This document shows, in pieces, positions 5,824 to 42,474 of a stretch of 64,000 nucleotides of DNA (within the stretch, counting starts at the first letter, position 1; each line of letters begins with the position of its first letter). Origin of the DNA: Dehalococcoidales bacterium (GTDB taxonomy: Bacteria; Chloroflexota; Dehalococcoidia; Dehalococcoidales; UBA5627); assembly GCA_034429935.1 (NCBI GenBank), contig DAOUFJ010000023.1, forward strand, positions 9,517-73,516. The letters run 5' to 3'. The notes beneath the pieces were generated by a model that worked only from the letters and a program-made list of their open reading frames with translations, did no database searches and was not told the DNA's origin. A program made the translations under genes and the position numbers.

Positions 5824-5896
5824 CGGGGTGTAGCGCAGTTGGTAGCGCGCAGCGTTTGGGACGCTGAGGTCGGAGGTTCGAGACCTCTCACCCCGA
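5824..5896 (+). tRNA. tRNA-Pro(TGG)
   Basis: Acceptor CGGGGTG/CACCCCG, anticodon arm CAGCG-TTTGGGA-CGCTG, T loop TTCGAGA. CCA is not encoded. Confidence 0.95.
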
Positions 5897-8989: not shown

Positions 8990-10194
8990 ATTTATTTGAA
9001 CCCCCGTCGTTTTTTAACGAGGCCGACAGTTATACCTATGCCAGTATCAAGCCGGTATTGCGCGTGGAATCTATAAACCTTGAAGACAGCCTGAACAGGG
9101 TGCTGGCCGAAGATATTACGGCGGTTAGAGGTATCCCTCCCTTCAGCCGCGCCGTGATGGACGGGTATGCCGTTATCGCCAGGGATACTATCGGAACATC
9201 GCAGGATGCTCCGAAAATATTCGAGATAGTAGATTATCTGTATGCGGGCGGGGTGTCTAAAAAGTATTTGTCGTCGGGAGAGTGCGTACAGATTACCACC
9301 GGAGCTAAAGTCCCTGAGGGAGCGGATGCCGTTGTAATGACTGAAAATACAGGCATCGAAAACGGCAGATTGTGTATTTATAAACCCGTAAGTTACGGGG
9401 ATAATATAGAAACGGAAGGGCAGGATGTCAAAAGGGGGCGGGTATTATTAAGACAGGGAACGTTTCTGACTCCGGCGGGAGTTGGGTTGATTGCTACCCA
9501 GGGTATACAGAAGATAAAGGTCTATGAAAAACCGAAAGTAGCTGTTATTTCCAATGGTGAGGAACTCACGGAAGCCGGTGGTATTTTAAAGGATGGGCAA
9601 ATTTACGATGTCAATTCTTTTACCGTCAGCGCTATCGTGAGTGAGAACGGTTGTTTGCCTTTGAAGTTTGGAATAGTTGGCGACAATCCCGAAAAAATCA
9701 GGTCGATTATAGATGAAGCATTGAAAGTGGCGGATTTTGTATTTATTTCAGGCGGTTCTTCCCGGGGCGACAGAGACTATCTGATGGAAATCCTTCAGAA
9801 ACTGGGCAGGATTCCCTCTTATAAAATCAAGTCGAATGGGAAATCAGGTATATTTGTCATAGCCAGCGGAAAACCTGTTTTGGGAACACCCGGATTCCCC
9901 TCGTCCTGCCTGATAAATGCCTATGTTCTGCTTGTGCCGGCGCTCAGAAAGATTGCGCAGCTTCCCTGTGACAGGAGAATGAATGTTACTGCAAGGCTCA
10001 CAGAGAAAGTCGAATCTGATAAAAATATCAGCGGGCGTTTTTTACCATTAAAAATAGAGGGCGGCAGGGCAATTCCTGTTATCAGTGAAAATAAGGGGAT
10101 AGTCAATCTTGCCAAAGCGGACGGCTATATAATATTAGACGAAGAAACCGCAGCTATCGAAGAAGGATGTGCGGTTTCCGTTAATCTGTTTTAA
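8986..10194 (+). CDS. moeA: Molybdopterin molybdo/tungsto-transferase MoeA (copy 1)
   Basis: PPFSRAVMDGYAV, ITTGAKVPEGADAVV, IYDVN, SGGSSRG; ATGA overlap with moaB. Confidence 0.88.
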   Translation: MNLFEPPSFFNEADSYTYASIKPVLRVESINLEDSLNRVLAEDITAVRGIPPFSRAVMDGYAVIARDTIGTSQDAPKIFEIVDYLYAGGVSKKYLSSGECVQITTGAKVPEGADAVVMTENTGIENGRLCIYKPVSYGDNIETEGQDVKRGRVLLRQGTFLTPAGVGLIATQGIQKIKVYEKPKVAVISNGEELTEAGGILKDGQIYDVNSFTVSAIVSENGCLPLKFGIVGDNPEKIRSIIDEALKVADFVFISGGSSRGDRDYLMEILQKLGRIPSYKIKSNGKSGIFVIASGKPVLGTPGFPSSCLINAYVLLVPALRKIAQLPCDRRMNVTARLTEKVESDKNISGRFLPLKIEGGRAIPVISENKGIVNLAKADGYIILDEETAAIEEGCAVSVNLF

Positions 10195-32675: not shown

Positions 32676-34027
32676 TAGAACGCTATAGCCGTCCGCAGAT
32701 GAAGCAGGTGTGGTCGGATGAGAATAAATTTGCCAGGTGGCTGGATGTCGAAATTGCCGTCTGTGAAGCATGGGCAGACCTCGGGAGGGTTCCCAGGAAC
32801 GCCATCCCCAAGATAAAGATGGCGCGTTTGAATATGAAACGCATGGAGGAAATACTCCAGGAAACGCACCACGATATGACCGCCTTTATCGGCTCCGTTT
32901 CGGAGAGCCTCGGCCCCGAAGCCAGGTTTATTCATCTCGGCATGACATCTTCGGATGTTATGGATACCGCATTGAGCTTACAGCTTGTCGAAGCGTCTGA
33001 CATATTGAATGAGGATATAAAAGGACTTCTCTCGGTACTTGTAGAAAAGGCCATAAAATATAAATATACGGTTATGATAGGCCGTACTCACGGTATTCAT
33101 GCGGAACCGACTTCTTTCGGCCTTAAACTGGCATTGTGGATCGAAGAGATGCAGCGCAATCGACAGAGGCTGGCCGAGGCAACTAAAATGATAGCCGTCG
33201 GCAAAATTTCCGGAGCCGTCGGAACGTACGCCACTTTGTCGCCCGAAATCGAAGAAAAAGCCTGTGCCAAATTGATGTTAAGCCCCGCTTCGATATCGAA
33301 TCAGGTTTTGCAGCGTGACAGGCATGCCCAGTTCGTTACCACTCTGGCTATAATTGCCGGTTCCCTTGAGAAATTCGCCACCGAGATTCGCGGATTGCAG
33401 AAAACGGATACCCGCGAGGTCGAAGAGCCTTTCAGTCAGGGACAGACAGGTTCATCCGCCATGCCGCACAAGAGAAATCCCGAACTTTGCGAAAGGATTT
33501 GCGGTTTAGCCAGGCTGATAAGAGGGTACTCGGTAACCTCTATGGAAAATATCGCTTTGTGGCATGAGAGGGATATCAGCCATTCCTCCACAGAACGGGT
33601 GATAATGCCGGATGCCTGCCTTGCGCTCGATTATATGCTTTCGTTGTTTACCAATATAATGGACGGTCTTCTGGTTTATCCTAAGACCATGGAAAAGAAC
33701 CTCAATAAAACCAAAGGGCTGATATATTCACAGAGGGTAATGCTGTCTTTAATCGATAAAGGTCTCAGCAGGCAGGAAGCATATAAAATGGTTCAGCGGA
33801 ATGCCATGAAGTCATGGGAGGGAGGCAAAGATTTCCTCAAGCTGCTCGAAGCTGACAAAGATGTCGTAGCTGTGTTGCCGCCTGCCGAACTGGAACCGTT
33901 GTTCGATTACAAATATTATTTGAGATACGTGGATGAAATATTCAAGAGGCTGGGATTAACAGAAAGCCAGTGGAAAAAGAAGTATATGGCACTGGAGCCG
34001 AAGCCGTTAGGACCGAGAGCACTATGA
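32672..34027 (+). CDS. purB: Adenylosuccinate lyase
   Basis: MIERYS, GRTHG, GSSAMPHKRNP, HERDISHSS. Confidence 0.97.
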   Translation: MIERYSRPQMKQVWSDENKFARWLDVEIAVCEAWADLGRVPRNAIPKIKMARLNMKRMEEILQETHHDMTAFIGSVSESLGPEARFIHLGMTSSDVMDTALSLQLVEASDILNEDIKGLLSVLVEKAIKYKYTVMIGRTHGIHAEPTSFGLKLALWIEEMQRNRQRLAEATKMIAVGKISGAVGTYATLSPEIEEKACAKLMLSPASISNQVLQRDRHAQFVTTLAIIAGSLEKFATEIRGLQKTDTREVEEPFSQGQTGSSAMPHKRNPELCERICGLARLIRGYSVTSMENIALWHERDISHSSTERVIMPDACLALDYMLSLFTNIMDGLLVYPKTMEKNLNKTKGLIYSQRVMLSLIDKGLSRQEAYKMVQRNAMKSWEGGKDFLKLLEADKDVVAVLPPAELEPLFDYKYYLRYVDEIFKRLGLTESQWKKKYMALEPKPLGPRAL

Positions 34028-34944
34028 AAGCGGGAAAAGACATCTTGTTAAAAACAGAACTTTCGCTGCCTTTATTTATACGCGGTAAAGTACGAGATAC
34101 CTATGATATGGGTGATTACATTCTGATAGTCGTTACAGACAGGATTTCCGCTTTCGACGTAATACTTCCCTGCGGCATTCCACAGAAAGGCAGGGTGCTT
34201 AATCAGTTATCCGCCTTCTGGTTCGACAGGACAAAGGATGTCATTCCGAATCATGTTGTCACTGTCGTAGATGATGCCGCTATTCTTAACGATTACCTGC
34301 CCGAAGAAAAGCAGGGAGAATTTCCTTCTTATCTGAACAAGCGTTCCATGCTGGTCAAAAAAGCCAGGAGGTTGCCTATCGAATGCGTGGTGCGCGGTTA
34401 TATTTCCGGTTCCGCCTGGAGCGAATACCGTAAAAGCGGGACTGTTTCAGGGGTAAAGATGCCGGAAGGATTGCTTGAAAGCCAGAAACTGGAAAACCCG
34501 ATATTTACTCCGACAACCAAAGCCGAACAGGGGCACGATATGCCGATGACTATGTCTGAAGTAGAAAATATGGTAGGCAAATCGCTGGCAGGCGAGATAA
34601 AGGACGCCAGCATCAGGATTTATAATTATGCCATGGAGTATGCCGGAACGCGCGGTTTTATTATCGCCGATACCAAGTTCGAGTTCGGTATCGATGACGG
34701 AAAACTGATTATTATAGATGAAATGCTGACCCCCGATTCCAGCCGTTTCTGGGAAGCGGATAAATATAAGGCAGGGCAATCACAGGACAGCTACGATAAA
34801 CAAATCGTCAGGGATTGGCTCAGCAAGTCCGGCTGGAACAAAGAACCGCCCGGGCCGGTTTTACCGGATGATGTAATCGAAAAGACGGCGCAGCGATATA
34901 TAGAGGCTTATGAAAAGCTGACCGGAAAGAAGTTTAATTATTAG
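34024..34944 (+). CDS. purC: SAICAR synthase
   Basis: ATG 34024 (ATGA overlap with purB); GKVRD, TDRISAFD, ECVVRGY, ADTKFEFG, TPDSSRFW. Confidence 0.96.
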   Translation: MKAGKDILLKTELSLPLFIRGKVRDTYDMGDYILIVVTDRISAFDVILPCGIPQKGRVLNQLSAFWFDRTKDVIPNHVVTVVDDAAILNDYLPEEKQGEFPSYLNKRSMLVKKARRLPIECVVRGYISGSAWSEYRKSGTVSGVKMPEGLLESQKLENPIFTPTTKAEQGHDMPMTMSEVENMVGKSLAGEIKDASIRIYNYAMEYAGTRGFIIADTKFEFGIDDGKLIIIDEMLTPDSSRFWEADKYKAGQSQDSYDKQIVRDWLSKSGWNKEPPGPVLPDDVIEKTAQRYIEAYEKLTGKKFNY

Positions 34945-35315: not shown

Positions 35316-35897
35316 TTACAACTGCCCCTTGGTGCTCGGTAAATCGCCGGAAGTCCTCGGGTCGATTCTGGTTGCGGCACCCAGTGCCCTGCCCAATGCC
35401 TTGAACGTTGCTTCCGTTTTATGATGGTCGTTGGTTCCGTAAAGGATTCTGGCATGCAAATTCATTCTGGACTCGATGGCCAGTGTCTCCAGAAAATGGC
35501 GCACCAGGTCGGTGGGGAAACCGAACATATCGTTGTCGCAAAAAGGAAGATCCAGCACGGCATATCCCCTGCCGCTGAGGTCTATAGCCACAGAAGCCAG
35601 GGCATCGTCCATCGGGACGGTGGCATCGGCCATGCGTGTAATGCCCCGTTTTTCACCCAGTGCTTCGCATAGAGCCTTTCCCATGCATATAGCGACATCC
35701 TCCACCATGTGGTGTATGTCGTCTCCTGTTGCTGATAATGTTATGTCAATTAAGCTGTGCTTCGATAATTGCGACAGGAGATGGTCGAAAATCCGGTTGC
35801 CGGTAACCATTTCATAATCGCCGCATCCGTCTATATCGAGTTTAAGGTTGATATTGGTTTCCTTTGTTTCCCGCTTGATGCTGGAGATTCTGTTCAT
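35316..35897 (-). CDS. hisB: Imidazoleglycerol-phosphate dehydratase
   Basis: [34 protein letters not shown]. Confidence 0.96.
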
Positions 35898-35898
35898 C

Positions 35899-36996
35899 TC
35901 ATAATCCCTCCCCTATTCTATCGAGAGTTTTAATCAGAGCATCGTTTTCTTCCGGTTTGCCGACACTTATTCTCAAACTGTCCTTTAATAACGGGGTGTC
36001 GAAATAACGCACGAGAATGCCGTTTTCCTCGAGCTTCTGCTGTACATCTTTTGCCTTGCCTTTCAATACGGCACATAATATGAAATTCGCTTTTGAAGGA
36101 TAAGGCTTGATCCAGCCGGTTTTTTGCAGCATATCGAATAATCTGTCGCGTTCGGAAGAAATGATTCCGACTTTATCCATCAGGTAATTTTTATCCTTAA
36201 CCGATTCAATGGCGGCCAGCTGTGCTAAAACATTAACACAATAAGGTTCCTTAATCTTTAGCAGTATATTTGCTATTTCTACAGGGAACATGCCGTAACC
36301 GATTCTCAAGCCCGCCAGACCGGCCCATTTGCTGAATGTCCGGAGCACCATTAAATTCTTATATTTGCCTACCAGCGGAGCTACCGTCTCCCCCGTAAAT
36401 TCGAAATAGGCTTCGTCGACCAGAGTCGGTATTCCAAAATCAAGGACTTCGAGGATATCCTTTTTAGGCATGATGGTTCCCGTAGGATTGTTTGGTGTTG
36501 CCAGAAGTATCAGCTTGGTTCTGGAGGTTATAGCCTTCTTTACGGCTTTAACATCCACCATGAAGTTCTCATCCCTTAACACATTGACAGTAGTTCCGGA
36601 CACAAGATTAATGAAGAACTGGAACATGGCAAATGTCGGAATACAGTTGATTACTTCATCGCCTTTGGCAACAAAAAGCCTCATCAGCAGGTCGATAAGC
36701 TGGTCGCTGCCGGCACTGGCGACGATGTGCTCCATGGGCACTCCCGTATATTCCTGAAGATATTTTCTGAGTTCCTGTTGCCCCGAGTCGGGATATACAT
36801 GTATCCCTGAATATCCGGCAAGCGCCTTTCTGACCTTCGGCGAGCACCCGTACGGATTTTCGTTGGCGTCCAGCTTGATTATCTTTTCAACGGGAACAGC
36901 GATTTTCCCCTTGAGCGTTTCCGGTGCCTTGCTTGCCGCATAACCTCCGAAGCTTTTCAATTCTGGGAGTACGAATTTTTCGATTTCTTCTGACAT
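35899..36996 (-). CDS. hisC: Histidinol-phosphate aminotransferase
   Basis: [34 protein letters not shown]. Confidence 0.95.
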
Positions 36997-37026: not shown

Positions 37027-38340
37027 TTATAACCTGATTTCCACGGTTTTCGAGTGTGCCTGTAATCCTTCCGCATTTGCAATCGTCATCGCTACAGGCC
37101 CCAGTCTTTCCAGTTCTTCCCTGGTTACCTTAACCAGATTGGTATATTTAATGAAGTCGGATATATTTAGCGGTGAAGCAAATCTGGCCGTTCCGCTTGT
37201 CGGCAGAGCGTGGCTCGGGCCGGCTACATAATCCCCCATAGCCACCGTCGGCGTATATCCGTAAAATATACAGCCGGCATTGGTTATTTTTTCGATGTAT
37301 GATTCTACATTTGCCATATCCATGCAGAGATGTTCTGGCGCATACATATTGGATAGCTCAATGGCTTCATCCATGCTGTCTACGATTACTATTATTCCGT
37401 TGTTTGCCAGCGATTCGGAGGCGATTTTAAATCTGCTCAATTCCTCCATCTGGGTGTTTATTTCCCTTTCGATTGCTGCAGCGAGCGAAGGCGAATCGGT
37501 AATCAATATCGAGGAAGCCAGCATGTCATGCTCGGCCTGTGCCAGTATCTCGGCTGCAATCAAGTTGGCTCTGGCTTTGATATCGGCGATAATTAACACT
37601 TCGCTGGGTCCCTGCAACCCGTCTATATCTACCGTGCCGAAAACCTGTTTCTTGGCCAGCATAACGAATATGTTGCCGGGCCCGCATATTTTATCTACGC
37701 GTGGAACGGTTTCAGTGCCGTATGCCAGCGCAGCAATAGCCTGAGCCCCGCCGATGGAAAATACACGGTCAACTTCGGCAATATAGGCAGCCGCCAGTGT
37801 AGCTGCCGGGATTTTTCCGTCTTTGCCGGGAGGAGTCACAAGGCATACTTCTTTAACTCCGGCGACCCTGGCAGGAATGGCTGTCATCAGCACCGTTGAC
37901 GGATAGCTTGCCGTTCCGCCGGGGGCATAAACACCAACTCTCTGCAGCGGACGGGCTGAAGTCCCCGGCTTCATTTTTTCGATGCCGCTGAATAAAGCGT
38001 CTCTCTGTAAAACATGAAATGAGCGTACCTGCTCGGCCGCTGTCTTAAGCGCTTCGAGGAGTTCCCTGTTTATACTGTGGTATGCTTCACTTACTTCCCT
38101 TTTCGATACTTCGATTGCAGGGAGGTTTATTTTATCTATTTTAAAAGTATAGCCCTTGACAGCAGAATCGCCGTTTTTACGGACGTTATCGATAATGGTT
38201 CTGACCACCTGTTCGGGGTCTTCAGTTCCGAACATTTCATTCAGGCTGTTTTTCAGTGCCGGCGAGATTGTATAGTCGCCCGATATTACCTGTCTCGACA
38301 GCCGTGTCTTTGCTTCTTCAAACCCCTTTATAATTTTCAT
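37027..38340 (-). CDS. hisD: Histidinol dehydrogenase
   Basis: YAPGG, GGAQAIAALAYG, GPGNIFV, GPSEV, QAEHD, APEHL, GPSHALPT. Confidence 0.97.
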   Translation of the reverse strand: MKIIKGFEEAKTRLSRQVISGDYTISPALKNSLNEMFGTEDPEQVVRTIIDNVRKNGDSAVKGYTFKIDKINLPAIEVSKREVSEAYHSINRELLEALKTAAEQVRSFHVLQRDALFSGIEKMKPGTSARPLQRVGVYAPGGTASYPSTVLMTAIPARVAGVKEVCLVTPPGKDGKIPAATLAAAYIAEVDRVFSIGGAQAIAALAYGTETVPRVDKICGPGNIFVMLAKKQVFGTVDIDGLQGPSEVLIIADIKARANLIAAEILAQAEHDMLASSILITDSPSLAAAIEREINTQMEELSRFKIASESLANNGIIVIVDSMDEAIELSNMYAPEHLCMDMANVESYIEKITNAGCIFYGYTPTVAMGDYVAGPSHALPTSGTARFASPLNISDFIKYTNLVKVTREELERLGPVAMTIANAEGLQAHSKTVEIRL

Positions 38341-38341
38341 T

Positions 38342-39760
38342 TCAGGGCATCTCCATAGCGTTCTTTAGCGCTTTTATCAAGAACTCCATCCTCTCGGTTT
38401 TTTTTGCATTGTTTATCTTCCTGGTACTGCCAATAAGGCAGGCCGTAGATTCGAACAGCTTGTCGATAATCCTCAGGTTGTGGCGTGCAATCGTTCCGCC
38501 TGTTTCGGTATTTTCGATTAGCAAATCGGCATCTTCTGGCAGAAAGCCTTCCGTTGCACCCCATGTAGGGATTATCCGGTATCTGTCCATGCGAATATCC
38601 CTGACATAGTGGTCGGCGATATTGGTATATTCGGTCGCCACCCTGCAGGTAATCTGGTTCTTGCTGCAATATTCACGCCATGAGGAAATATCTTCGATGG
38701 GCAGGTTCTGGTCGATTACCGCCACTATTTTAACCCATCCGTATTTAAGGTCGAGCAATTCCTCGATGGGGCTGTTCGGAAACTGGTATTTGTGGTCGAT
38801 AAGCCAATCCCTCCCCGTAATGGCAAGGTCAAAATTTCCATTGGCTATTTGTAGCGGCATATCCTGCGGCCTGATAACTTTTATAAAATAACCGTCCAGA
38901 TTGCTTGTCGGCCTCCGGTTGCCCGTCTGCGACGGATAGTCATCCACCTTAATTCCTACTTTATCGAAAATACGGCATACATGAGATTGCTGGTGTCCGT
39001 CTGGCAGGGCCAGTCTCACCATGTCGTCATTTACTTTTGCAAATGTTTTGCAGACAGGCTGTTCTGTCCTGTGTATTATGCTGAAGGTTTTTGAAAAATC
39101 CCTGCTATTGACCATTTTATCGATCAGCGACGATAAAATATCGGCCATATTTTTGGATTTCAGGCTGTTGCTGTTGGCAATTAAATACGCCTTGAAATCC
39201 ACTATCTTGTTGATGGGGACAAGCCCCGCATCGAGTATGTCCTTTTCCGATTTTCTGGGTAAAAGAACGATTTCCGCTTCTTCCGGTGGATAGACTTCGG
39301 CGCCGCCCCACAACGGAAATATACTGAACCGCTTGAGACGCAGCTTTTCCGCCAGTGTTTCCGCCAGGTTGGGATATTCGCCGGCTATGCGGGTATTACT
39401 TCTTCTTGCGGAGAGTTTTTCAGGGTCGGACAATTCCCCGGGTAAGGCGGCGGCATATAGCGCGCCCTCTCCGTATCCGAGGTCGGCGATTTTAACGACG
39501 GAGCTGCTCGGGTATTTAACCAGCAATTCTTCTGTCCAGTCCAGTCCACAGATACCGAGGTCATAATTGCCCACAGCTATCTGTATTGGGATATCTTTTT
39601 CCTGCAATACTTTTATTTTTATATCCGGGAATTTCTGTGATTTCAAACGATAATAGCGTAATTTATCGTTGTACCCCTCGATTCTCCATCCGGCGCTTTC
39701 GAGAAGGGCTGCCGTATCGTTTAAAAGCCGTCCTTTGGGCAAAGCAATGTTAAGCGACAT
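38342..39760 (-). CDS. hisG: ATP phosphoribosyltransferase, tandem duplication of the short-form catalytic unit
   Basis: Two HisG repeats: IALPKGRL...DIP...GNYDLGICGLD...RIAGEYP and LALPDGH...RPQDMP...GNFDLAITGRD...RVATEYT...ENTETGGT. Confidence 0.88.
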   Translation of the reverse strand: MSLNIALPKGRLLNDTAALLESAGWRIEGYNDKLRYYRLKSQKFPDIKIKVLQEKDIPIQIAVGNYDLGICGLDWTEELLVKYPSSSVVKIADLGYGEGALYAAALPGELSDPEKLSARRSNTRIAGEYPNLAETLAEKLRLKRFSIFPLWGGAEVYPPEEAEIVLLPRKSEKDILDAGLVPINKIVDFKAYLIANSNSLKSKNMADILSSLIDKMVNSRDFSKTFSIIHRTEQPVCKTFAKVNDDMVRLALPDGHQQSHVCRIFDKVGIKVDDYPSQTGNRRPTSNLDGYFIKVIRPQDMPLQIANGNFDLAITGRDWLIDHKYQFPNSPIEELLDLKYGWVKIVAVIDQNLPIEDISSWREYCSKNQITCRVATEYTNIADHYVRDIRMDRYRIIPTWGATEGFLPEDADLLIENTETGGTIARHNLRIIDKLFESTACLIGSTRKINNAKKTERMEFLIKALKNAMEMP

Positions 39761-41193: not shown

Positions 41194-42474
41194 ATGGTGA
41201 AAGTTGAGCAAGCTTTAGAAATTATTTTGAATCATACTGTTGTTCTTGATACCGAGAAAAAACCGTTGCTAAAATGTTTGGGGCAGGTACTGGCTGAGGA
41301 TATCCGCGCTCAATTCGATATGCCACAGTTAGATACCGGTGGTCCGGATGGTTATGCCGTCAGGTCCGAAGATATTAAAAGCGCCAGCCAGGATAACCCG
41401 ATAACTTTACGAATTATCGGGACAGTAAGAGCAGGCTACTTACCGAAGCGAACAGTTCAACCGGGAACTGCTATACGTATTATGACTGGTTCCGTGGTGC
41501 CTGAAGGCGCAGACTGTGTCGTCAGATTTGAGGATACAGATGAACCTGTGAACAAAAATGGCCCCAATCCATATAACCCTTCGGAAGTACGTTTTTTCTC
41601 CCCGTCCAGACCGGGGGCAAATATTTGCAGTGTGGGGAGCCGTTATACCAAAGGTTCACCGGTAATTCCGGCAGGTATACCTGTCGGGCCTTCTCAGATA
41701 TCTACCATTGCTTCTGTTGGGCTGGCAAATATCAAGGTAATCCGCCGACCGGTAATTGCTGTAATATCTACCGGTGATGAACTTATAAATCTGAATCAAT
41801 CACCTGCTCCTGCAAAAATTTATAACTGTAATACCGCAGCCGTATCTTCTTTAATTACCCATTATGGGGGTGTGCCTCAGATAATGGGTATCGCTCGTGA
41901 CAATGAGTCCTCCCTTAATCAAAAAATCCAAAAAAGTATTTTTGCGGATGCCATCATTACCAGCGGCGGAGTTTCCATGGGAGACTATGATTTAGTCCGG
42001 TTGGTGCTGGGTAAAACCGGACAGGTTCTTTTTTCAAGGATTAACATGGGGCCGGGAAAGTCTCTTGCCTTTGGTTTGGTTTATAGAACTTCGACCTCGG
42101 GAGAGCAAATACCGGTTCCTGTATTTGCTTTATCCGGGCCCCCCGTCGGTTGCATAAACAATTTTGAAACCCTTGTCAGGCCTGCCATACTTAAAATGAT
42201 GGGTTTTAGTGCGTTAAGCCATCCGTCGGTTGAAGCTGTCGCTATGGACTCTGACCTGATGAAAAAAACATTTCCTTTTATCAGATGGACAAGGCTGGAA
42301 AAAGTGCAGGGTGAATATCGGGTAACCCTTAATGGACATGGAAAACCCGGACCGCCGGCAGGGGTAGAAACAGCCAACTCTATCACAATTATCCCTGAAA
42401 ATACCCCAGTTCAAAAAGGTGATCGTATCCAGGTACTGCCATTGGAGTGGTGCCGGGATTACCTGAATCGTTAA
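41194..42474 (+). CDS. moeA: Molybdopterin molybdo/tungsto-transferase MoeA (copy 2, divergent)
   Basis: DGYAV, RIMTGSVVPEGADCVV, ISTGDEL, SGGVSMGDYD. Atypical motifs: PQLDTGGPDG, MGPGKS, LSGPP. Confidence 0.85.
   Translation: MVKVEQALEIILNHTVVLDTEKKPLLKCLGQVLAEDIRAQFDMPQLDTGGPDGYAVRSEDIKSASQDNPITLRIIGTVRAGYLPKRTVQPGTAIRIMTGSVVPEGADCVVRFEDTDEPVNKNGPNPYNPSEVRFFSPSRPGANICSVGSRYTKGSPVIPAGIPVGPSQISTIASVGLANIKVIRRPVIAVISTGDELINLNQSPAPAKIYNCNTAAVSSLITHYGGVPQIMGIARDNESSLNQKIQKSIFADAIITSGGVSMGDYDLVRLVLGKTGQVLFSRINMGPGKSLAFGLVYRTSTSGEQIPVPVFALSGPPVGCINNFETLVRPAILKMMGFSALSHPSVEAVAMDSDLMKKTFPFIRWTRLEKVQGEYRVTLNGHGKPGPPAGVETANSITIIPENTPVQKGDRIQVLPLEWCRDYLNR

Follow-up and report, generated by a model that had tools for sequence, protein, structure and literature searches.

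The hisG gene in a 64,000-nucleotide stretch of DNA from a Dehalococcoidales bacterium (hereafter the window; positions 9,517 to 73,516 of contig DAOUFJ010000023.1, assembly GCA_034429935.1) is a single open reading frame (ORF) of 472 codons plus a stop, and it carries two HisG domains in tandem. We propose, with a probability of roughly 0.7, that this gene encodes a pseudo-heterodimer of ATP phosphoribosyltransferase, in which a catalytic C-terminal module (C-type) is paired with an N-terminal pseudoenzyme (N-type) that has no P-loop for phosphoribosyl pyrophosphate (PRPP) and lends an arginine in trans, and that this pair works with HisZ, the product of the neighbouring gene.

Translation of the hisG ORF revealed no internal stops, and both family models matched it in two separate stretches (the Pfam HisG family PF01634, 192.7 bits against a cut-off of 25.5; TIGR00070, 239 bits against a cut-off of 75.75). 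Aligned with one another, the N and C halves were 28% identical over ~220 residues (E = 7e-30), and each could be aligned end to end with solved short-form HisG chains (~205–230 residues). An earlier note on this DNA, made from the sequence alone, had described a stop-free 472-residue ORF with two short-form HisG repeats and had suggested aligning both halves to HisG structures; that description is borne out by these alignments, and the motifs it quoted are exact (IALPKGRL at residues 5–12, AEIVLLPRKSEKD at 162–174, LALPDGHQ at 250–257 and DLLIENTETGGT at 412–423). No HisG_C regulatory domain was found, PF01634 being the only Pfam match in the 472-residue protein at E ≤ 0.1. A genome-wide search (1.9 Mb in 39 contigs, ~96% complete) returned the double HisG as the sole HisG of this genome. 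The hisG product belongs to the HisG catalytic core family by its scores and fold, and the lack of HisG_C and the presence of a partner hisZ fit the short form of the enzyme, HisG_S.

Functional anchors for the active-site columns were taken from two studies only, PMC9734150 and PMC10795190. In HisG_S of Psychrobacter arcticus, the pyrophosphate of PRPP is contacted by Arg32 and, from the other subunit of the dimer, by Arg56, and the R32A and R56A substitutions cost 25-fold and 42-fold, respectively (PMC9734150). HisZ rescues the single mutants (kcat of the R32A holoenzyme is 0.48 s-1 versus 1.72 s-1 for wild type), and an R32A/R56A/K57A triple mutant is down ~777-fold and beyond rescue by HisZ (PMC9734150). 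Arg73 (Arg70 in Acinetobacter baumannii) binds the gamma-phosphate of ATP, and the HisG_S dimer is arranged head to tail (PMC10795190). We counted residues at these positions in an alignment of 175 N-type, 167 C-type and 22 canonical domains, using A. baumannii numbering. The canonical K-G-R motif survives in most N-type domains, with K in 143 and R in 14 at the K27 column, and with R in 130, D in 23, E in 9 and S in 6 at the R29 column (P. arcticus R32). C-type domains instead read D-G-H (D in 166 at the K27 column, H in 167/167 at the R29 column), and this holds in the two-gene forms from Desulfobacterota as well. At the R53 column (P. arcticus R56, trans-acting; canonically R), N-type domains have arginine (162/175, 93%) and C-type domains have G, A or a variable residue, with no conserved arginine. 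The R70 column (P. arcticus R73; canonically K or R) is occupied by R in every C-type domain (167/167) and by H, Q, R or S in N-type domains, the residue in our N half being Q53. At the D173 column, canonically D, C-type domains have E (164) or D (3) and N-type domains L, I or V, and the canonical T-G-x-T at columns T177-G178-x-T180 is kept in C-type domains (T in 165, G in 167, T in 162 or S in 5) and variable in N-type domains. A near-invariant arginine peculiar to N-type domains occupies column 147 (R141 in the 472-residue protein).

From these columns, the C module alone is predicted to have a complete substrate-binding pocket and the N module to have none. The earlier note had claimed a complementary degeneration, with K-G-R kept in the first half and the P-loop in the second, and had inferred a fused pseudo-dimer with asymmetric or split active sites. 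Asymmetric decay is what we observe, in that only the C half keeps a substrate-binding pocket, and a fused HisG pair does stand beside HisZ; the version with K-G-R and P-loop split between the halves is not family-wide, because the K-G-R arginine is gone in 45 of the 175 N-type domains (with D, E, G, S or N in its place), every stand-alone form that we examined among them. The R53-column arginine is still present in all 45. Since the trans-acting arginine is thus kept on N-type domains, these 45 included, and lost on C-type domains, we redefine the complementarity in terms of this residue.

In the mechanism that we propose, catalysis would fall to the C-type module, which still has the PRPP P-loop, the acid that precedes it, the arginine for the ATP gamma-phosphate and the conserved Glu/Asp, with D-G-H in place of K-G-R. 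The N-type module would be a pseudoenzyme that has lost PRPP binding and kept the trans-acting Arg35. Within one chain, the two modules would pack against each other head to tail, as the subunits of the HisG_S dimer do, and Arg35 of the N module would be donated to the pyrophosphate leaving group, completing the single active site in the C module. Because HisZ fails to restore the P. arcticus mutant without both arginines, a D-G-H site is expected to need the arginine of its partner. A C module on its own should be nearly inactive, because it has a His at the cis position and would receive no trans arginine from another C module; this expectation would explain both the retention of the N module and the favoured fusion, and the C module may be obligately dependent on the N module. 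HisZ would bind the N-C pair, activate it and confer inhibition by histidine, and the assembly would be a HisZ tetramer with two N-C units, so that its active sites would number two, not four. N-type and C-type domains co-occur, fused or adjacent, in every form that we inspected, together with hisZ.

An AlphaFold2 (AF2) model of the 472-residue protein, built from a 123-sequence alignment, had a predicted local distance difference test (pLDDT) score of 87.5 and a predicted template modelling (pTM) score of 0.77. The pLDDT dipped in the linker and in two equivalent loops, residues 151–160 and 401–410. For a chain of two modules, a pTM of 0.77 suggests that the two halves have a defined arrangement relative to each other. 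Each half had the HisG fold, with target TM-scores of up to 0.87 to 5M8H_E and 5UBI_A (Foldseek against the PDB). No PDB chain spanning both halves was found by Foldseek (query TM-score ≤0.42, coverage at most about half of the model); because no deposited chain covers more than about half of the model, no double HisG has been solved.

The fusion is widespread in the class Dehalococcoidia. In a word-indexed search we recovered at least 120 full-length relatives (~460–480 residues), down to 56% identity, and the named ones all came from Dehalococcoidia or Chloroflexota metagenome-assembled genomes (MAGs). Matches at E ≤ 1e-10 were present in 199 of 301 sampled Dehalococcoidia genomes, and ~150–170 of these 199, roughly half of the whole sample, had a full-length, stop-free match at 36–67% identity. 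Another ~30 of the sampled genomes gave weak matches only (~1e-11; family codes f29 and f22 are examples), which fits an ordinary single HisG, and ~100 had no match at E 1e-10. This makes the class a patchwork of lineages with a double HisG, lineages with an ordinary HisG and possibly lineages with none. A survey of doubled HisG had been suggested in the earlier note, and it shows that the architecture is not unique to the genome of the window. A phylum-wide sample gave no strong match in other classes of Chloroflexota (28/28 strong matches within Dehalococcoidia). Within the same order, the cultured Dehalococcoides mccartyi, with complete genomes, carries a 468-residue fusion in many strains (AAW39897.1, CAI82972.1), and the complete genome of Dehalogenimonas alkenigignens encodes one of 467 residues (both by exact-sequence look-up); these proteins are annotated merely as 'ATP phosphoribosyltransferase'. 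At 69 of 80 named species-representative loci, the fusion was one complete, stop-free frame of 459–479 residues. None of the remaining 11 was split: 4 run off a contig end, 5 have a frame that is interrupted, or cut short at its start, by sequence that is masked or missing, and the locus L049 has an odd frame. At L049 (4001-5695; Dehalococcoidia, UBA2162), this frame has 565 residues, ~95 more than its relatives, and the N motif reads PKGN. A fused double HisG 55% identical to a query from a split clade described below was also found in a MAG labelled Calditrichales (L058, JAIWFK010000012.1), which is either a mis-binned Dehalococcoidia contig or a case of transfer.

Mean pairwise identity among 123 fused proteins was 60% in the N half, 68.5% in the C half and 18% in the linker, which has a length of 34–49 residues. 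Since the N half is 60% identical versus 18% in the linker, it is evidently maintained and not decaying, and it appears to be under strong purifying selection.

We also found the two domain types as separate genes. Our homologue search takes only candidates of similar length, so that half-length queries leave out fusions; the matches to such queries were mostly fragments. Apparent splits at two loci (L004 and L005) were not counted, as these assemblies are ridden with frameshifts and have hisD and hisZ broken too. A clade of 220-residue N-type proteins was consistent across JGI, Logan and ENA. Two of its loci, L003 (5001-6408) and L086 (1494-2901), have hisZ, an N-type gene of 220 codons and a C-type gene of 251 or 246 codons, with the same downstream neighbour. 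The junctions lie within the linker and vary (an 11-nt out-of-frame overlap and a 4-nt gap in L003 and L086; a 1-nt gap in L087, 638-1493). Because this split clade nests among fused sequences in both the N and the C subtrees, we read these Dehalococcoidia-like loci as a secondary fission at the linker, with both genes kept; the clade is in effect a natural split-protein experiment. An exhaustive search of representatives with the N half returned further stand-alone N-type and C-type proteins, one N-type labelled 'Deltaproteobacteria / Candidatus Zymogenaceae' and a C-type cluster of 35 members labelled 'Desulfobacterales'. Such separate-gene paralogues occur in Desulfobacterota-labelled and in unlabelled MAGs, and the assignment of stand-alone genes to N-type or C-type is backed by profile scores and motifs. 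The order hisZ, N-type, C-type was found in all non-fused loci inspected (5/5; L088, L089, L116, L117 and L118), with stop and start usually overlapping.

Two of these loci had features of their own. The unlabelled metagenome contig L116 (1561-5743) has hisZ, the N-type gene and the C-type gene followed immediately by a true histidyl-tRNA synthetase (HisRS) gene with an anticodon-binding domain, so that the HisZ paralogue and its parent synthetase gene are side by side. At L118 (1327-5839), HisZ has 314 residues and is without the C-terminal extension, a gene of the Zn-dependent phospholipase C family lies between the C-type hisG and hisD, and the C-type P-loop has G for its first T.

The 175 N-type, 167 C-type and 22 canonical domains were placed in one tree (FastTree, LG+gamma, 216 columns), rooted on archaeal HisG. 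N-type domains were monophyletic (support 0.999), as were C-type domains (support 0.945), and the clade uniting the two was separate from canonical HisG (support 0.977). This topology points to an origin of N-type and C-type domains in one ancient duplication. Desulfobacterota-type pairs were interspersed on weakly supported branches, and the backbone within the N and C clades is too weak to order the fused state and the two-gene state relative to one another.

The upstream gene was assigned to hisZ, a paralogue of the HisRS gene. Its product scored 203 bits with TIGR00443 and 210 bits with TIGR00442, both under cut-off, and no anticodon domain was matched in it by Pfam. A true HisRS is encoded elsewhere in the genome (contig C1) and, because this separate, bona fide synthetase scores 490 bits versus 210 bits for the hisZ product, we take the upstream gene to encode HisZ. 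Among 100 related loci, 86 have a hisZ gene upstream in the same orientation.

Two alternatives deny that the fusion exists as one chain. Frameshift-ridden assemblies with a seemingly split gene do occur (L004 and L005), and an error of assembly, a missed stop or a frameshift might have merged two adjacent genes; the earlier note had itself named an assembly artefact or a missed stop as a way in which its claim could fail. Cultured D. mccartyi and Dehalogenimonas have the same stop-free fusion in their complete genomes, and the named species loci hold it as a single frame or, in the remainder, are never split; its stop-free conservation in well over 100 other genomes excludes, by comparison, both a missed stop and a misassembly, and we give an artefact practically no credence. 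It is also very improbable that the ORF yields two polypeptides, by an internal start at Met247 or by processing, so that the fusion would be only apparent. An ATG happens to stand at residue 247 of the 472-residue protein (nt 39022), where the earlier note had suggested such a start, and the split two-gene forms are evidently functional; however, just 9 of 123 relatives share a methionine at that column, the ATG is not preceded by anything like a Shine-Dalgarno sequence, and the frame is continuous in all fused relatives.

Other alternatives accept the fusion and differ on what the N half does. That both halves are active, the protein being a HisG_S dimer whose subunits are joined covalently and both work, is hard to credit: both halves have the HisG fold and family scores above cut-off, but across 175 sequences the N half is without T-G-x-T, the acid (L, I or V instead) and the gamma-phosphate arginine, and the P-loop stretch is unconserved. 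A weightier proposal, which we nonetheless consider unlikely, is that the N half is mainly a regulatory ligand sensor, in which a remnant pocket formed by K9-G10-R11 and by R282/R283 from the C half would bind an anionic effector (a nucleotide, pyrophosphate or PRPP) and modulate the C-half site, so that control would not rest with HisZ alone. Conservation of the N half as a whole is high; K9-G10 is invariant and R11 nearly invariant in the N half of the 123 closer relatives; and the R-R pair (R282-R283), two residues from the trans-arginine column, is conserved in ~93% of C-type domains. Against this, HisZ, the known regulator, is retained, and the residues that hold nucleotide and PRPP (the P-loop, the acid and the R70 equivalent) are all gone from the N half. 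Because the K-G-R arginine is lost in 45/175 N-type domains with no matching change in the R-R pair, a ligand site in the N pocket is not family-wide. The pseudo-heterodimer has points to answer as well. A pure model of dead scaffold plus arginine donor does not explain K9-G10-R11 in the N half and R282-R283 in the C half, which could mean a ligand role for the N pocket; the short loop with the trans-acting arginine may be misaligned by 1–2 residues in C-type domains; and only 22 canonical sequences, a small set, serve as outgroup in the tree.

Compared with HisG_S/HisZ enzymes of solved structure (P. arcticus 5M8H/6FU2, A. baumannii 8OY0, Lactococcus lactis 1Z7M, Thermotoga maritima 1USY), the double HisG has the same HisG catalytic fold, no C-terminal regulatory domain and an adjacent, probably translationally coupled hisZ. 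Its C half has the PRPP P-loop, the acid and the gamma-phosphate arginine, and its active site would, like that of HisG_S, use an arginine from across the interface. HisG_S forms homodimers on a HisZ tetramer (a HisG4-HisZ4 hetero-octamer), whereas here there are two diverged HisG modules, on one chain or from two genes; because one chain carries two different modules, a canonical homodimer in the strict sense is impossible. Unlike in HisG_S, one module would not bind substrate, the catalytic module, with its D-G-H, would not be the source of the trans arginine, and the expected number of active sites per complex would be halved. The long form, HisG_L (Escherichia coli 1H3D, Mycobacterium tuberculosis, Campylobacter jejuni 4YB7, Methanothermobacter thermautotrophicus 2VD3), shares the core fold and also has a polypeptide longer than HisG_S; it differs in adding a C-terminal histidine-binding domain and needing no HisZ, where the double HisG has a second HisG core, no HisG_C and a retained HisZ.

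Pairs of an enzyme and a dead paralogue are known from the trypanosomatid S-adenosylmethionine decarboxylase (AdoMetDC) and its prozyme, which form a heterodimer, and HisZ is itself a dead HisRS paralogue. As with AdoMetDC and prozyme, a dead paralogue would here be kept by selection, completing or activating the live one. The double HisG differs in that the two are fused in most lineages, that the proposed contribution is one trans arginine plus a dimer scaffold, and that the holo-complex would have two pseudoenzymes, HisZ and the N-type HisG. The broader claim, which we advance tentatively and hold to be somewhat short of an even chance, is that these proteins are a third class of ATP phosphoribosyltransferase: an obligate heterodimer of a D-G-H HisG and a P-loop-less HisG (fused or from two genes), neither active alone, in which the sole leaving-group arginine comes from the pseudoenzyme, with two active sites per HisZ tetramer and two different pseudoenzymes; where N pockets keep K-G-R, they may be effector sites.

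We found no account of fused HisG-HisG proteins, of paired N and C HisG subunits or of a HisG pseudo-subunit in the full-text literature, subscription titles being outside its scope, nor any biochemical data on a double HisG; one review mentions hisZ-hisG fusions only. The double HisG is a class-wide departure from the two textbook architectures of ATP phosphoribosyltransferase, in proteins that have been public, under a generic name, ever since Dehalococcoides was first sequenced. Textbooks treat ATP phosphoribosyltransferase as an example of allostery, and it serves as a model of active-site pre-organisation by a distant regulatory protein. If our proposal is right, the double HisG would be a natural test of the electrostatic model built on Arg32 and Arg56 of P. 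arcticus, with the cis arginine changed to His and the trans arginine surviving on the dead partner only, and would clearly exemplify a core enzyme of biosynthesis that was duplicated, subfunctionalised, fused and split again. It also bears on annotation, as the 470-residue fusions and the 220–250-residue N-type genes of Desulfobacterota are all named 'ATP phosphoribosyltransferase', and the N-type genes very probably do not encode enzymes. The cultured D. mccartyi and Dehalogenimonas carry the fusion, which makes it amenable to heterologous expression.

Table 1. Features of the double hisG gene and of the adjoining his genes (window coordinates; Pa, P. arcticus; Ab, A. baumannii).
Feature	Position	Strand	Basis
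Double hisG: N-type domain, linker, C-type domain	38342..39760	-	Pfam, TIGRFAM, self-alignment
N-type HisG domain, residues 1-205, predicted catalytically dead	39146..39760	-	Alignment to HisG_S chains
Inter-domain linker, residues 206-246	39023..39145	-	Low conservation, lower pLDDT in AF2 model
C-type HisG domain, residues 247-472, predicted sole catalytic module	38345..39022	-	Alignment to HisG chains, anchors kept
K9-G10-R11, canonical K-G-R motif (R = Pa Arg32 / Ab Arg29), N half	39728..39736	-	Alignment columns
R35-Y-Y-R38; R35 aligns with Pa HisG_S Arg56 (Ab Arg53)	39647..39658	-	Alignment columns
Degenerate AEIVLLPRKSEKDIL at PRPP P-loop site of N half (LLPRKSEKD)	39233..39277	-	Family columns variable
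D254-G255-H256 in place of K-G-R, C half	38993..39001	-	Alignment columns
R297, Pa Arg73 / Ab Arg70 equivalent, C half	38870..38872	-	Arg in 167/167 C-type
DLLIENTETGGT: acid E416 and PRPP P-loop T420-G421-x-T423, C half	38492..38527	-	C-type columns near-invariant
hisZ, regulatory subunit, HisRS paralogue, 416 residues	39750..41000	-	Pfam tRNA-synt_His only
hisD, histidinol dehydrogenase	37027..38340	-	PF00815, 514 bits
hisC, histidinol-phosphate aminotransferase type	35899..36996	-	PF00155, 209 bits
hisB, imidazoleglycerol-phosphate dehydratase	35316..35897	-	PF00475, 178 bits

The his genes form a compact minus-strand operon in the order hisZ-hisG-hisD-hisC-hisB. The hisZ stop overlaps the hisG start by 11 nt, and this overlap, together with the tight packing of the his genes, suggests translational coupling along the operon. 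The hisG stop and the hisD start are 1 nt apart (38338-38344), as are the hisC stop and the hisB start (35897-35899). Long stop-to-stop frames in some GC-rich relatives were considered as in-frame HisZ-HisG-HisG triple fusions, and none was found, hisZ lying in another frame every time.

Rfam matched nothing in the window but two tRNA genes (2288-2360 and 5824-5896, plus strand); the region upstream of hisZ gave neither a T-box nor a his leader. A gene for a MoeA-type molybdopterin molybdotransferase (41194-42474, plus strand) is divergent from hisZ. Just beyond hisB lies purC, encoding SAICAR synthetase (33970-34944, plus strand), which adjoins the his cluster in L004 and L005 too.

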